The notes under the pieces are model-generated. The model did no database searches, had not been told where the DNA came from, and saw only the letters and a program-made list of their open reading frames with translations. 37,730 nucleotides of DNA from Candidatus Woesearchaeota archaeon (GTDB lineage Archaea; Nanobdellota; Nanobdellia; Woesearchaeales; CG1-02-33-12). The stretch covers positions 1 to 37,730 of the forward strand of contig JAFCEA010000004.1 in assembly GCA_017609385.1 (NCBI GenBank), given 5' to 3'. The number at the start of each line of letters is the position of its first letter. The stretch's first letter is position 1. Made by a program: the position numbers and the translations under genes. This document shows positions 4,245 through 33,396 of the stretch, in pieces.

Positions 4245-4370
4245 GCCGCTGTAGCTCAGCCTGGTTAGAGCGCTACGCTCATATGTATTGAGCGATGAGA
4301 GCTTTGCTCGATGATTAACTCATCTAACTGAGGTACGTAGAGGTCACGGGCTCAAATCCCGCCAGCGGCA
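4245..4370 (+). tRNA. tRNA-Met(CAT) elongator with 51-nt intron at 37/38 (4284-4334)
   Basis: Acceptor GCCGCTG/CAGCGGC; anticodon stem CTACG/CGTAG; CT-CAT-A; BHB central helix CTCA/TGAG. TATA TTTATAAA lies upstream. Confidence 0.9.
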
Positions 4371-4396
4371 CCTTTTTTTCTTAAGAATTAATTAAA

Positions 4397-5354: not shown

Positions 5355-5386
5355 AAAGATGACCCAATCTTAGTAAAATAAGTATA

Positions 5387-5597
5387 TGCCCGGTCCGGGA
5401 CTTTCGACCTGATTGCGATTGCAAGCGAATTTAATTGACAGGCCTGATTTTTAATTCAGTTCCTGCCATTTCTTGCGAGCGTAGCGAGCGAGTCCAGCTT
5501 TATGCTGGACATGCGTGCCAGCTGAGCAAACAGCTGTTCGAACCCGAGTCCCGGCCTCGAGAGGGCCGGATGATTGGCCGAACTACACCAACCGGGC
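5387..5597 (-). tRNA. tRNA-Glu(CTC) with 136-nt T-loop intron at 59/60 (5401-5536)
   Basis: Acceptor GCCCGGT/ACCGGGC; anticodon arm CGGCC-CTCTCGA-GGCCG; TCGGG-TTCGAA|intron|T-CCCGG. BHB has central helix TTCG/CGAA and 3-nt bulges AA|C and AG|T. Confidence 0.88.
5475..5536 (-). repeat. Modular hairpin repeat, copy 1 (inside tRNA-Glu intron)
   Basis: CAGCTG-TTTGCT-CAGCTG-GCACGC / GTCCAGC-ATAAA-GCTGGAC / TCGCTCGCTACGCTCGC. Confidence 0.85.
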
Positions 5598-5601
5598 AAT
5601 A

Positions 5602-5767
5602 CGCCAGGGCTGGGACTTTCACTAATGGTTGGGCGAACGAAGTGAGCGCGTCCAGCTTTATGCTGGACTTTGCGTATCAAATGAGCGTAACCATTTGTTT
5701 TGAACCCAGATTCCCAAAAGGGACGAGATTTCCAGTCTCGCGCGGTACCAGATTGCGCCACCCTGGC
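5602..5767 (-). tRNA. tRNA-Ser(GGA) with 83-nt T-loop intron at 59/60 (5616-5698)
   Basis: Acceptor GCCAGGG/CCCTGGC with G73; CGAGA-CTGGAAA-TCTCG; variable arm TCCC-TTTT-GGGA. BHB has TTCA/TGAA and outer helix AATGGTT/AACCATT. Confidence 0.88.
5633..5697 (-). repeat. Modular hairpin repeat, copy 2 (inside tRNA-Ser intron)
   Basis: CAAATG-GTTACGCT-CATTTG-ATACGC / GTCCAGC-ATAAA-GCTGGAC / GCGCTCACTTCGTTCGC. Confidence 0.85.
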
Positions 5768-5816
5768 AACCTTAAAAAGAAAACCATATTTGTTTATATA
5801 AGTTTTGAAAAAAGAA

Positions 5817-25906: not shown

Positions 25907-25932
25907 TTAGTTTATCCTCGCTTTTAAGGTTA

Positions 25933-26022
25933 TGGGCCGGACGAGATTCGGACTCGCGACCACCTGATTACTTTCAACCTTTGTTAAAAGTCAGATGCTC
26001 TACCAGGCTGAGCTACCGGCCC
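25933..26022 (-). tRNA. tRNA-Lys(TTT) with 16-nt intron at 37/38 (25969-25984)
   Basis: Acceptor GGGCCGG/CCGGCCC; TCTGA-CTTTTA|ACAAAGGTTGAAAGTA|A-TCAGG; T loop TCCGAAT. Confidence 0.88.
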
Positions 26023-26061
26023 AAAGATGCAAAAACCAGAACAAAATTCTGGTTTAAGCAA

Positions 26062-26154
26062 CGCCCTGGCCGGGATTTTCAGTATTAAATGCCTTTGAAC
26101 CCGAGTCGAAGCCTCGACAGGGCTTCATGATAAGCCGAACTACACCACCAGGGC
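26062..26154 (-). tRNA. tRNA-Asp(GTC) with 18-nt T-loop intron at 59/60
   Basis: Acceptor GCCCTGG/CCAGGGC with G73; AAGCC-CTGTCGA-GGCTT; TTCAAA|GGCATTTAATACTGAAAA|T-CCCGG with BHB helix TTCA/TGAA. Confidence 0.88.
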
Positions 26155-27984: not shown

Positions 27985-28051
27985 TCACTACCACCACTTA
28001 TATTAAATTGGGTATTTATATATAAATGTTTCTAAATTATAAAACTAGTAT

Positions 28052-28115
28052 GTGCGAACGAAGTGAGCGTGTCTGACTTTATGCCTGACCTTCGTGCCAG
28101 CTTAGCAAGAAGCTG
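28052..28115 (-). repeat. Modular hairpin repeat, copy 4 (free-standing, starts 3 nt downstream of tRNA-Pro 3' end)
   Basis: CAGCTT-CTTGCT-AAGCTG-GCACGA / GTCAGGC-ATAAA-GTCAGAC / ACGCTCACTTCGTTCGC. Confidence 0.85.
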
Positions 28116-28117
28116 TA

Positions 28118-28294
28118 TGGGGCCGCCGAGACTTCCGAAAATGGTTGCGAGCGAAGCGAGCTCGGTGGGCTTGCTGTTAGGCAATGCCCGCCCTTGCGTA
28201 TCAAATGAGCGTAACCATTTGTTTGAACTCGGGTTACCAGCGTTCCAGGATAACACCCCGGGCTGGAATGATAGCCAAACTACACTACGGCCCC
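28118..28294 (-). tRNA. tRNA-Pro(GGG) with two introns: 13 nt at 37/38 (28243-28255) and 90 nt at 59/60 (28132-28221)
   Basis: Acceptor GGGGCCG/CGGCCCC with A73; CCAGC-CCGGGG|TGTTATCCTGGAA|C-GCTGG; CCGAG-TTCAAA|intron|T-CTCGG. Confidence 0.82.
28147..28221 (-). repeat. Modular hairpin repeat, copy 3 (inside tRNA-Pro T-loop intron)
   Basis: The first 28 nt CAAATGGTTACGCTCATTTGATACGCAA are identical to the Ser(GGA) copy. The middle hairpin differs; the copy ends GCTCGCTTCGCTCGC. Confidence 0.85.
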
Positions 28295-28296
28295 AA

Positions 28297-30771
28297 TTAA
28301 AAAACCTTACTAACATGCTCGCTCTTGGTTACTCTTAATATATTATCAACAAAACTCTCTATCTTGCTTTCATGGCTGACTGTTATTATCTGCTTTATAT
28401 TTAACTGGTCAAGCACATCTTTCATCTTATCAAGCTGGTCTGTTGAAAATCCATCTGTTGGCTCATCCAGAATTATGATATCCTTTGTTTTTATTCCCCC
28501 AATTAAATCATTTATTACCCTATTGAGGGCAAGCCTGTAAGCTAAGGCACATGATGTTCTCTCACCACCGCTAAGATATTCAATGCTTGTTTCATAATCA
28601 TTCTGCTCTATTATTGGCGTAAACTCATCATCAAGTCTTACACCAATGGTCTCTTCCTCCATAAGAATATTAAACCAGTTTTGGAAGAATTCATTAAACT
28701 CTTGGTAAACCCTTAGCATAATCTGCCTTTCCATCATTGACATAAGCTTTATAAAATATTCATCAAGCCAGTTCCTCATTTGTTTTAGATGGTTAATTTT
28801 TTCCTTGATTCTTAATTTTTCATCAATTTCTTTTTCCAATCCTTTAATTGCTTTATTAATGCCTTCTGCTTCCTTTTCAAGCTGTGCTTTTTTTATTGCT
28901 AAAAGTGTTTCATCTGAGATTGCCTTCTCAAGCTCTTGTTTTATTATTTTGTAGTTTTGCTCAATTCCTTCAAATCTCTTTATCTTATCATCTAGCTCTA
29001 TTTTCAAATTGTTTATCTCTCCAACATCTTTTTTTAATAATGCAATGTTCTTTAAAATCTCTTCCCTACTTTTATTTTTTTCATCCATAAGATTTATTAG
29101 GTTCTGCCTTTCATTTAACATAGTGTTGGATTTATGAATTTTTTTAAGTAAATCTTTTGATTCAGAAATCTTATTTTTTATTTTATCTAAATCTTTTGAA
29201 TTTATAAAATCAAGCTCTTTCTTAATCTTCTCCTCATCTAAACTTAACCTATTAAGCAACTTTTGTTTTTCAATAATCTCTTTTCCCAGTTGCCCAAACC
29301 TTTCTATTTCAATCTTTAATCTATCAGTGGTTTTTTCTTTTTGCAGCAGGCTCTCTAGCTCTGCATTTAAATCTTTAAGCTCATCAATAACTTTCTTTTT
29401 TCTTTTATTTTCTTGCTTTAAGGTTTCAACATAATCTTTTATTTTTTTATCTTCAAGATCATTAATGTATTTTTTGTGTTCTGATGATAATTTCTGTGAG
29501 CATATAGGACATTTATCTGATTTTAAGATGTCTTTTTTTATTTTTTCGGATTTTTCTTTATTGACTTCATTTTCTTTAATTATTAAACTTATTTTTTTAA
29601 TCTCCTCTTCTTTTTCAACAATTTCTTTCTTAAGATCTTCTTTTTTGTGGATATCATGCTGAAGCTGGTCAAACATATTTTTCTTTATAATAATCTTTTT
29701 TGACTCTTCTGATTTTGTTAATATTCCTTCTTCTAGTTCTTTTTTTCTTCTTTGCAATGACTTATTTTTTTCAGTCAGTTCAACTTTCCTCTGCATTAAG
29801 TAATTATATTCTTCCTCTTTCTTTATTATTAATTTTTCCACTTCTGATTCATTTTCTTTTATTGGTTTTATCTCAAATTTCTCTATTTTTGTATTGAACT
29901 CTTTTATGCTTTTATCCAGAACTTCTATATTTTCTTTGTAATTTTGTACTAACATAACCTTTTCTTTAAGTCTTGTGTTTGCTATTTCCTCTTTTTTCCT
30001 TAAATCATTTAATTCATTAATCCTTTTTTCCAGTTGGTTTATACTTTCTTTCTTTTCCTTAACAACAGATTCCGCTGCCTTTATCTTTGGTTTTATCTCA
30101 TCTACTTTTGTTATCACATTCCTTAACTCATTTTCTCTTTCCTTTTTCTGTATTTTTTTTTCTTCAAGGTCAGCAATCATCCCATTAAATTCCTTTGTTT
30201 TCTCTCTTATTTCCCTTATTATGATTTGACTGTTTTCCCTGATTCTTTTGTATTTGTCAATCTGAAAAACTCTTCTTAAAGTGTCAAGCCTGTAATCTTT
30301 GTCATCTAACAATATCTGTTTCATCTCTTCCTGTGGCGTATAAACAGTATACCTGTAAATCAATGATTTGGTCTTTGTAACAAGTTCTTTGGGATAACCC
30401 AAAAGGTCAAGAATTTTTGATTTTAATTCAACAGCAGTTCCCTCTGTTTTTTTGTTATTTATTATTATAAACCCAGAGTCCTGTCTTACATCACCTCTTT
30501 TCCTTTTTAATGTTCTTTTTATTATTATATCTTTATTGTCAAGACTAAATTTAAGTTCAACAGAACCCTTGTTTTTGCCGTTTCTTAAAAGAGAATTACC
30601 AGACAAAGACCTCATTATGCCAAAAAGTGCAAATTCTATGGCTAGTAGTATGGTTGATTTTCCGCTACCTATATCACCACTTAAAAGAACAGAGCCACGT
30701 GGAAAATTTATGGTTTGGTTGAGATAGCTTCTTATGTTCTCAAGCTTCACATATTTTATTATCATACACAT
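28297..30771 (-). CDS. rad50: Rad50/SbcC SMC-like ATPase
   Basis: Walker A GDIGSGKS, long coiled coil with central CPIC zinc hook, LSGGE signature, IILDEPT Walker B, VSH. Confidence 0.9.
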   Translation of the reverse strand: MCMIIKYVKLENIRSYLNQTINFPRGSVLLSGDIGSGKSTILLAIEFALFGIMRSLSGNSLLRNGKNKGSVELKFSLDNKDIIIKRTLKRKRGDVRQDSGFIIINNKKTEGTAVELKSKILDLLGYPKELVTKTKSLIYRYTVYTPQEEMKQILLDDKDYRLDTLRRVFQIDKYKRIRENSQIIIREIREKTKEFNGMIADLEEKKIQKKERENELRNVITKVDEIKPKIKAAESVVKEKKESINQLEKRINELNDLRKKEEIANTRLKEKVMLVQNYKENIEVLDKSIKEFNTKIEKFEIKPIKENESEVEKLIIKKEEEYNYLMQRKVELTEKNKSLQRRKKELEEGILTKSEESKKIIIKKNMFDQLQHDIHKKEDLKKEIVEKEEEIKKISLIIKENEVNKEKSEKIKKDILKSDKCPICSQKLSSEHKKYINDLEDKKIKDYVETLKQENKRKKKVIDELKDLNAELESLLQKEKTTDRLKIEIERFGQLGKEIIEKQKLLNRLSLDEEKIKKELDFINSKDLDKIKNKISESKDLLKKIHKSNTMLNERQNLINLMDEKNKSREEILKNIALLKKDVGEINNLKIELDDKIKRFEGIEQNYKIIKQELEKAISDETLLAIKKAQLEKEAEGINKAIKGLEKEIDEKLRIKEKINHLKQMRNWLDEYFIKLMSMMERQIMLRVYQEFNEFFQNWFNILMEEETIGVRLDDEFTPIIEQNDYETSIEYLSGGERTSCALAYRLALNRVINDLIGGIKTKDIIILDEPTDGFSTDQLDKMKDVLDQLNIKQIITVSHESKIESFVDNILRVTKSEHVSKVF

Positions 30772-30921
30772 AAAAAATATTTCCCAAGTTTTTATATTTA
30801 ATTAAACTAAAAACCATATATTATAAAAATCACCACTACTAAATAGAAAAATATTTAAATAGAGGATAGTTCCTTTACCAATAGGAAAATACAGCACTAC
30901 TAACGCAGCTAGGAGAATAAA

Positions 30922-33109: not shown

Positions 33110-33396
33110 CCTTTTTTCTAGTTGATTTATGTTTTCTTTTTTCCTTAACAACAGACTCTGCTGTATTTATCCTTGGTTTTATCTCATCTATTTTTGTTAT
33201 TACATTCCTTAACTCATCATTTCTTTGCTTTTTCTGCATTTTTTTCTTCAAGGTCAGAAACTATCCAACTAAATTCCTTTGTTTTCTCTTTTATTTCTCT
33301 TATTATAATTTGACTATTTTCCCAAGTTTTTATATTTAATTAAACTAAAAACCATATATCATAAAAATTACTACTCCTAAATAGAAAAATATTTAA
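33110..33396 (-). pseudogene. Decayed duplicate of the rad50 5' region and its upstream intergenic/promoter segment
   Basis: 33110-33323 aligns to 30022-30239 with substitutions and small indels. It is fused at TTTCCC to 33318-33396, which aligns to 30780-30858. Confidence 0.85.

Follow-up and report, generated by a model that had tools for sequence, protein, structure and literature searches.

The stretch of DNA analysed here, which we call the window, comprises positions 1 to 37,730 of contig JAFCEA010000004.1 in the genome assembly GCA_017609385.1 of a Candidatus Woesearchaeota archaeon, and it contains tRNA genes whose T-loops are interrupted between positions 59 and 60 by introns, most of which carry a structured unit of three modules, A, B and C. 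Two of these genes are adjacent on the minus strand. The tRNA-Ser(GGA) gene (5602-5767) has an 83-nt intron at 5616-5698, in which motif searches located a module A of type A1 (5672-5697), a B1 hairpin (5650-5668) and a module C (5633-5647), and a covariance model of the unit (R1, described below) matches 5631-5697 (E = 6.5e-14). The tRNA-Glu(CUC) gene (5387-5597) has a 136-nt intron at 5401-5536, located in the same way as A2 (5513-5536), B1 (5492-5510) and C (5475-5489) and matched by the model at 5473-5536 (E = 6.9e-16); the same intron holds a second, degenerate unit made up of a B3-like hairpin and a decayed C (about 5419-5472). After intron removal, ARAGORN reads the two genes as a full-length tRNA-Ser(GGA) and a tRNA-Glu(CUC). 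Further along, again on the minus strand, a tRNA-Pro(GGG) gene (28118-28294) has both an anticodon-loop intron and a 90-nt T-loop intron (28132-28221), the latter with A1 (28196-28221), a B3 hairpin (about 28164-28193), C (28147-28161), the closing strand AACCAUUU and a tail, and matched by the model at 28145-28221 (E = 1e-8). Another minus-strand unit, A2-B1-C (28052-28115, E = 2e-13), begins 3 nt past the 3' terminus of tRNA-Pro and stops at a T-run (28032-28051). The preliminary description of this DNA had taken that copy to be free; since it adjoins both the tRNA-Pro 3' end and the T-run, we class it as a trailer copy. All four copies listed in that description are recovered by the model, with E-values from 1e-8 to 7e-16. 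The fourth gene, tRNA-Asp(GUC) (26062-26154, minus strand), has an 'empty' 59/60 intron of 18 nt (26076-26093) with no A-B-C unit.

The Ser, Glu and Pro T-loops are each broken after six bases (UUCRAN), and all three genes are missed by ARAGORN and by Rfam at default settings. Removal of the T-loop insert restores canonical full-length tRNAs in ARAGORN, for genes of this genome as well as for those of its relatives. Isotypes are uncertain where a gene has a second intron: ARAGORN gives Phe for a gene that we read by hand as Arg(UCU), and 28118-28294 is tRNA-Pro(GGG) by hand reading, ARAGORN setting the anticodon-loop intron elsewhere and calling Ser(GGA). The hand reading puts C at anticodon-loop positions 32 and 33, where U33 is expected; the alternative splice of ARAGORN yields a GGA anticodon, yet in a tRNA without a long variable arm. 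Across the genome, the 26 plain or anticodon-intron tRNAs called by ARAGORN include no uninterrupted Glu, Asp, Pro or Lys. The presence of these four isotypes in the assembly only as T-loop-interrupted genes argues that such genes are spliced and used.

That the Ser, Glu and Pro introns share repeats, as the preliminary description proposed, is borne out by repeat finding (families D4, D6 and D13) and by BLAST. The identical stretch common to the Ser and Pro introns, put there at 28 nt, comes to 31 nt in BLAST, and the Ser and Glu introns agree at 24 of 25 nt in module B, the 19-nt hairpin GTCCAGCATAAAGCTGGAC being identical in both. The unit as a whole consists of hairpin A, the word RYACGC with a short A-rich linker, the variable hairpin B and module C, in that order. 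Hairpin A has 6 bp and a loop of GUUACGCU or YUUGCU (also seen as CUUGCU), with arms of the types CAAAUG/CAUUUG, CAGCUG/CAGCUG, CAGCUU/AAGCUG, CAACUG/CAGUUG, CGACUG/CGGUCG and others. Hairpin B1 has 7 bp and the loop AUAAA; in B2 and B3 the stem is longer and contains a bulged A and a mismatch, either C.C or C.A. Module C reads GCUCRCU-(2-5 nt)-GYUCGC followed by AA. Genome-wide motif counts, which include a few spurious matches, are 21 for A, 23 for C and 11 for B1, against means of 3.0, 8.0 and 3.4 in five genome shuffles. At the gathering threshold of Rfam 15 the whole window gives four tRNA matches only, and a scan of 5380-5780 at E <= 10 returns one tRNA row below threshold and a chance snoRNA row (15.9 bits, against a gathering threshold of 37); no Rfam family fits the units.

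We used an alignment of 56 copies (54 distinct rows) from 42 sources to examine covariation. Overall, 95.8% of cells pair and double changes occur at 14 of the 17 pairs; in hairpin A, for which compensatory changes had already been claimed, they occur at five of six pairs, with 99.4% of cells paired. No shuffle among 500 scored as high for covariation, a figure that is not a probability because the rows are related to one another and were aligned by fitting to the model, and slid registers are only 23-39% paired. Module C appears to behave as a mini-hairpin, with a covarying R:Y pair (GC in 36 rows, AU in 12, GU in 1, other in 5) and a U.C/C.U internal loop kept in 53 and 54 of 54 rows, yet it is not predicted by the energy model. 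Folding energies computed for RNA and DNA are alike for both strands (z of -0.8 to -3.1 for whole units, about zero for module C alone). Counts of G.U versus A.C pairs are 5:0 in hairpin A, 5:4 in B1 and 3:6 in C.

The model R1 was built from ten A-B1-C copies found by BLAST and motif scans, and was run against the source genome (988 kb in 141 contigs, 92.7% complete). Below, this genome is G000, those of its relatives are G001 and so on, and the prefixes C and L denote contigs and examined loci. The 19 matches divide into 15 in the T-loop introns of 14 tRNA genes, two in tRNA trailers and two elsewhere, one on C49 and one between two genes on C27. Extra partial copies were found by eye or by motif: two more in trailers, one at C27:330-415, and one in a 49-nt Glu(UUC) intron that has a decayed hairpin A only. 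In all, 17 tRNA genes have 59/60 introns (16 by script, with C80 added by eye), two of them 'empty', namely the 18-nt intron of Asp and a 20-nt intron in an Ile(UAU)-like gene. The introns of Glu, Ser, Pro, Val, Arg, Ala, Gly and Lys share stretches of 25-91 nt that are 86-100% identical in BLAST. A multi-copy, modular, structured family thus inhabits the T-loop introns of unrelated tRNAs, much as the preliminary description had it.

Further copies, which that description had suggested seeking, are plentiful among relatives. All 12 other genomes of the family contain R1 matches (15, 20, 7, 11, 10, 11, 10, 10, 16, 1, 11 and 15 copies), the low count being that of G010, with 1 unit, and the other 11 holding 7-20. 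Beyond it, 6 of the 48 other families of the order have matches: three in G013, one strong match in G021, and single or paired weak ones in G027, G034, G038 and G053. A script placed 37 of the 56 copies in T-loop introns, 7 in trailers and 12 elsewhere; inspection of the flanks of these 12 by eye gave 4-5 more T-loop introns and one more trailer, leaving about 6 elsewhere. Viral contigs gave no match to two module-A patterns, a weak negative given that only exact matching was used.

Two pairings that the preliminary description overlooked connect these introns to the tRNAs that contain them. The bulge-helix-bulge (BHB) motif of archaeal introns has two 3-nt bulges around a 4-bp helix, and in anticodon-loop introns the central helix includes the anticodon. 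Here, the 4 nt that precede the two final bases of the intron form all four pairs with T-loop bases 54-57 in 68 of the 76 candidate tRNAs with T-loop introns, and the two sides covary (UUCA/UGAA in 35, UUCG/CGAA in 17, UUCG/CGGA in 7). The 3' bulge beside the T-stem is of 3 nt, AGU in 58 genes and AAU in 12. In addition, the first 14 nt of the intron, which make up the loop and 5' arm of hairpin A, show complementarity to the 14 nt preceding the tail, and part of module A is therefore also the 5' strand of a closing helix; hairpin A and the closing helix are mutually alternative pairings of one 5' arm. Intron starts pair with their own tails at -9.09 kcal/mol and with those of other introns at -6.29 +/- 0.44 kcal/mol, and none of 300 permutations was as good. 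The resulting layout runs from the 5' splice site through the 5' strand of the closing helix, the modules, the 3' strand of the closing helix and the central helix strand to the bulge. In the Ser(GGA) intron, the closing-helix 3' strand AACCAUU precedes the tail UGAA + AG, and UGAA pairs with the T-loop bases UUCA, with the bulge AGU next. The Glu(CUC) tail is CGAA + AG, and the minimum-energy fold of this gene has the T-stem, the 3-nt bulge and the central (H) helix. The 'empty' Asp(GUC) intron has the tail UGAA + AAU, which again pairs with UUCA. Minimum-energy folds show these three elements cleanly in 9 of 17 genes and partially in 2 more, the A-U-rich UUCA/UGAA helices being absent from the minimum-energy fold; the 5' bulge varies from 1 to 6 nt, which would make some introns relaxed BHB forms.

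The enzymes of such splicing are encoded. EndA is a single alpha-type gene, identified by a PF01974 match in G000 and found once per genome in 14 relatives, where its open frames span 179-246 aa; the G000 copy, on C62 (L044), is truncated by the contig end. A 71-aa open reading frame (ORF) upstream of it resembles the N-terminal part of EndA, in another frame or piece. The ligase RtcB is also encoded (E = 2.9e-158). None of the public sequencing runs contained as much as half of the stretch, and the two RNA runs yielded two contigs covering part of the Glu 5' exon and no contigs, respectively, which is too partial to bear on splicing, expression or habitat.

Comparison of orthologous tRNAs for empty and filled introns, another check proposed in the preliminary description, reveals presence/absence and position polymorphism between relatives, and the same is seen in metagenome DNA contigs. 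The intron of the Ile(UAU)-like tRNA of the C94 cluster measures 20 nt in G000, and in the congener G001 it measures 81 nt and has the form A1-B1-C; the tail UGAAAG is kept, the entire interior is replaced and there is no target duplication. For Val(UAC), G000 has the unit in the T-loop; in G001 the T-loop is intact and a unit lies 3 nt beyond the gene. Behind the aEF-1alpha gene, the six closest of 80 loci (86-94% protein identity) keep the pair Ser(GGA)-Glu(CUC) with T-loop introns that differ in their module sets, the Glu introns being of 45, 88, 96, 96, 111 and 130 nt. Of the more distant aEF-1alpha loci, 11 have an uninterrupted Ser(GGA) gene and about 5 have one whose T-loop intron contains neither A nor C. 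Among these distant Woesearchaeota, L103 and L109 have Ser(GGA) introns that lack A-B-C and share a block of about 29 nt, GAGCTYWGCTTGTTGCCTGACTTAACAAA, which could be either an orthologous conserved interior or another type of cargo. Metagenome DNA contigs (runs X1 and X2, from two studies) contain a form of Glu(CUC) with 22 nt in place of 112 nt of the window intron. Variants are also common to adjacent genes: of 10 B1 copies, only the two in the neighbouring Ser and Glu introns have the form GTCCAGC...GCTGGAC, and in G003 the Ser and Glu units differ at only 2 of 76 nt. Such sharing speaks for local gene conversion.

Some trailer copies belong to tandem arrays of an intron plus a 3' exon, a feature that had likewise escaped earlier notice. 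Behind the tRNA-Pro orthologue of G002, which lies on L038, two more repeats of unit, tail and 3'-exon copy follow (1316-1720), the exon copies decaying progressively. In G012 (L034, 1340-1610, minus strand), a second unit comes after tRNA-Pro(CGG), with a tail and then another 3' exon that is nearly perfect. In a more distant genome (L118, from 6019), the sequence after an uninterrupted tRNA-Lys runs TA, some 80 nt, a tail and a further 3' exon, and the interior is unrelated. At least some trailer units, then, are displaced or duplicated segments of an intron with its 3' exon, which may arise either by duplication or by repeated replacement at 59/60. Outside tRNA genes, a full A-B2-C unit lies antisense at C27:1637-1717, between two minus-strand ORFs. 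The copy at C27:330-415 (L013), also antisense, lies in frame within a 329-aa ORF rich in NET repeats (sequons); it most resembles unit 3 in the array of G002, has the T-loop-like left flank TTCAAAA and lacks a counterpart in the aligned region of the G001 and G002 homologues, although that region is repeat-rich and the exact empty site is uncertain. The left flanks of trailer and other copies are otherwise variable rather than one fixed word. The copies outside tRNAs argue for events at the DNA level.

We think that the unit is a portable cargo of introns: a largely selfish or neutral, non-autonomous repeat that passes between tRNA genes by recombinational exchange. We would give this reading a probability of roughly 0.5. 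Anatomy, copy number, covariation, distribution, differences between orthologues and the EndA and RtcB genes are observed directly; from them we infer that the introns are spliced, that interiors are exchanged by recombination and that the unit has no host function. The carrier intron would bring with it all that is needed for its removal from any tRNA. Its 3' tail, YGRA followed by AG, would pair with the near-universal T-loop bases 54-57 (UUCR) and leave the bulge AGU beside the T-stem; its opening bases, which are the loop and 5' arm of hairpin A, would form the closing helix with the bases directly before the tail; and the single alpha-type EndA of the host, together with the RtcB ligase, would then excise it. 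Such excision would make the insert neutral for the tRNA, and the T-loop would suit cargo because nearly all tRNAs supply the same exon half of the central helix. Units and whole interiors would be exchanged between tRNA genes at the DNA level, with ectopic gene conversion, template switching or unequal recombination as the likely routes, seeded by the short common flanks GGTTCRAA on the left and, in most T-loop-intron genes, GAAAGTCC on the right. Displaced units would end up in tRNA trailers, some of them as decaying tandems of intron and 3' exon, and rarely elsewhere. A route through RNA, by reverse splicing and cDNA, is disfavoured, since no reverse transcriptase (PF00078) was found in the 92.7%-complete genome. 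Tyrosine recombinases are present as two full copies and fragments. As for a miniature inverted-repeat transposable element, the closing helix could pass for inverted termini, but there is no target duplication and the entire interior is replaced.

Several observations weigh against cargo of this kind. No moving enzyme or mechanism was found, and the arms available for recombination are very short, at about 8 nt. All genomes are metagenome bins, so that copy counts are rough. Above all, the unit looks selected. Its loops (AUAAA; GUUACGCU or CUUGCU) are conserved, as is the internal loop U.C/C.U in module C, and its stems change by compensation, in other families of the order too. Among five orthologous Ser(GCU) introns (10 pairs from the five sequences, with L039 missed by the search pattern), the unit differs at 81 of 640 sites (0.127) and the rest of the intron at 221 of 572 (0.386). 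A purely neutral passenger should decay, and so the unit would have to be recognised by a factor, be functional, or be renewed by gene conversion.

The same observations bring into play a function for the unit, the main alternative, which we regard as possible but less probable than neutral cargo. The unit could be a structured RNA or ribonucleoprotein module that exploits the promoters and processing of tRNAs to be produced itself, released from introns by EndA and RtcB, possibly as circles, and from trailers by 3' end processing; or it could act in cis, binding protein to aid the maturation of pre-tRNAs with interrupted T-loops. The strong covariation, the conserved loops and the conserved non-Watson-Crick internal loop would all suit such a module, as would a rate of change about three times slower than that of the rest of the orthologous introns. 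Retention within the family is complete, with 7-20 copies in 11 of the 12 genomes and 1 in G010. The Val(UAC) locus keeps its unit in either the intron or the trailer, and either place would deliver the RNA; the 5:0 ratio of G.U to A.C in hairpin A, moreover, favours the sense strand. However, the cargo is dispensable locus by locus, with introns of 18, 20 and 45-49 nt at the same position, and module types turn over fast between congeners. The unit also has antisense copies in an ORF and between two genes, is patchy across the order, and varies in its stems instead of in single-stranded, guide-like segments. We rejected a box C/D small RNA, the C box RTGATGA (RUGAUGA) being present in 0 of 56 units, and there is no match in Rfam.

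A further reading, which we also entertain only tentatively, is that the unit and its T-loop-complementary tail together make up a new, non-autonomous type of mobile intron that carries its own splice signals for the host endonuclease, fitted to the universal T-loop, and could colonise any tRNA harmlessly. Such an intron would be the BHB counterpart of self-splicing mobile introns; a factor recognising it would explain the conserved loops and the U.C/C.U motif, and the tandem arrays would be footprints of a cycle of insertion and replacement. A bolder variant would have the excised units persist as stable circular RNAs with a role in the cell.

We consider it improbable that the units are single-stranded DNA elements, akin to repetitive extragenic palindromic (REP) sequences or palindrome-associated transposable elements (PATEs), moved in trans by an HUH transposase (Y1, of the IS200/IS605 or REP-associated tyrosine transposase (RAYT)-like kind) that would recognise the hairpins and insert seamlessly 3' of the T-loop-like target TTCRAA. 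One intact IS200-like Y1_Tnp gene does occur in the genome (E = 2.2e-27), and Y1 was detected in 11 of the 19 genomes with the element against 10 of the 42 without it, a comparison that amounts to no statistical test because the genomes are kin. Presence and absence at Val(UAC) is seamless, and the copy inside the ORF lies directly behind TTCAAAA. Read antisense, module C becomes GCGAGC-GAA-GCGAGC, its mismatches turning into tandem G.A and 42 of 54 loops starting with G and ending with A, which we take to be a stable type of DNA mini-hairpin. However, the Y1 gene is unlinked to the units. It belongs to a complete IS200-like element with a 156-aa transposase ORF on another contig (C17, L045, about 1294-1975), which lies between the genes for eIF-2beta and a BcrAD/BadFG-type ATPase, has similar hairpins of its own at both ends (ACCTAGCTTTTAGCTAGG and ACCTCGGCTTTAGCCGAGG), sits behind TTAC and has no flanking units. 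In 14 Y1 loci, searched with filters off, R1 found nothing better than E = 2.8, and 5 of the 12 family genomes, carrying 7-15 units, show no Y1 gene at 57-89% completeness. A REP/RAYT system was rejected on these flanks, which carry other hairpins, and a PATE derived from IS200/IS605 on the mismatch between the ends of the units and those of the resident element, the latter standing behind TTAC and the units behind TTCRAA or variable words. Nor do the copies in trailers and elsewhere have a fixed word on their left; filled and empty introns differ by a swap of the entire interior and not by simple insertion, and folding energies fail to separate the strands. Of the mobile, REP-like element in a neutral intron harbour envisaged in the preliminary description, the modular, structured, multi-copy family in introns stands, and the REP/RAYT or IS200 link is not supported.

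Vertical descent with no mobility, from a single ancestral T-loop intron of duplicated tRNA genes, is very improbable: the identical position 59/60 throughout, the wide occurrence of T-loop introns in the wider lineage and the clear orthology of Ser(GCU) introns across five species would agree with it, but the introns of unrelated tRNAs share stretches of 25-91 nt at 86-100% identity while their anticodons and acceptor stems differ, orthologues differ in module content, and copies exist outside tRNAs.

The nearest precedent for exchange of cargo between tRNA introns lies in the Thermoproteales. The passages of two articles (PMC4033280, PMC4090602) that treat the 'large-scale tRNA intron transposition' of Fujishima et al. 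2010 describe intron families common to different tRNA genes, and the latter calls the mechanism "still unknown". As in our genomes, those passages have near-identical BHB introns in tRNAs of different identity, a spread inferred at the DNA level by an unknown mechanism, and intron sites limited by the need for a BHB. The present case, compared here with review descriptions rather than with sequences, differs in its DPANN hosts, its single position 59/60 and its long introns (76-163 nt). It also differs in that the common part is a structured, modular, covarying unit that occurs in trailers, between genes and in an ORF as well. A model for a functional intron RNA is the box C/D guide RNA that Singh and colleagues in 2004 reportedly found encoded in the intron of an archaeal pre-tRNA-Trp. 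This is again a structured RNA in a BHB intron, freed by splicing, but our units lack a C box (0 of 56), have no snoRNA match above noise, are multi-copy over many tRNAs and have no evident guide.

Bacterial repeats offer looser parallels. REP sequences and bacterial interspersed mosaic elements (BIMEs) with RAYT, and PATEs derived from IS200/IS605, are short, hairpin-forming, non-coding, multi-copy elements, and resemble the units in these hairpins and copy numbers and in the Y1 HUH gene of the genome; the units, however, neither flank Y1 nor resemble its ends, and they lie inside RNA genes, where their harmlessness would depend on RNA splicing. The BOX elements of pneumococci are modular intergenic repeats of the form boxA-boxB-boxC. 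Their likeness is in form only, as mosaics of a few module types with a variable middle and a stable predicted RNA structure, and they are bacterial and intergenic, with no link to introns or tRNA processing.

In the DPANN archaea themselves, the passages of Kaneta et al. 2018 (PMC5829648) on disrupted tRNAs report that predicted tRNA sets are incomplete and that EndA is of the alpha4 type. The genes described there are alike in having non-canonical EndA-type introns, in being accompanied by an alpha-type EndA and in defeating standard finders; the same passages describe no shared structured cargo. A literature search of titles and the starts of abstracts, with subscription journals and supplements outside its scope, likewise found no shared structured cargo in DPANN T-loop introns.

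How archaeal tRNA introns reach new sites is an open question, and the abstract of a 2026 preprint on Asgard archaea puts it that "how they arrive remains open". The lineage studied here is a readable case, with one insertion position, a recognisable cargo, and filled, empty, swapped and displaced states at orthologous loci in many genomes. The T-loop would serve as a universal landing pad, the intron pairing with bases common to nearly all tRNAs. Since ARAGORN finds no uninterrupted Glu, Asp, Pro or Lys gene, and both ARAGORN and Rfam miss T-loop-interrupted genes, the tRNA complements of such DPANN genomes are under-called. Should the units prove to be stable RNAs, they would make up a new RNA family produced by tRNA processing.

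Other features of the window deserve brief mention. A tRNA-Met(CAU) gene on the plus strand (4245-4372) has a 51-nt anticodon-loop intron in which GATGAG, GATGAT and a terminal CTGA can be recognised by eye; judged by these motifs, the intron may hold a guide of the box C/D-like kind that some archaeal tRNA introns contain. ARAGORN calls a tRNA-Val(AAC) at 25932-26023 on the minus strand, where by eye we read the anticodon loop CUUUUAA (Lys UUU) and a short intron; the 3' end of that intron, GGTTGAAAGT, resembles a T-loop-intron tail, and the T-loop is UCCGAAU. Finally, two pairs of direct repeats (30046-30239 with 33132-33323, and 30780-30858 with 33318-33396) lie about 3 kb apart and match over 79-114 nt at 87-95% identity; the first repeat (30046-30239) is at the 5' end of an SMC/Rad50-like gene (28297-30771).

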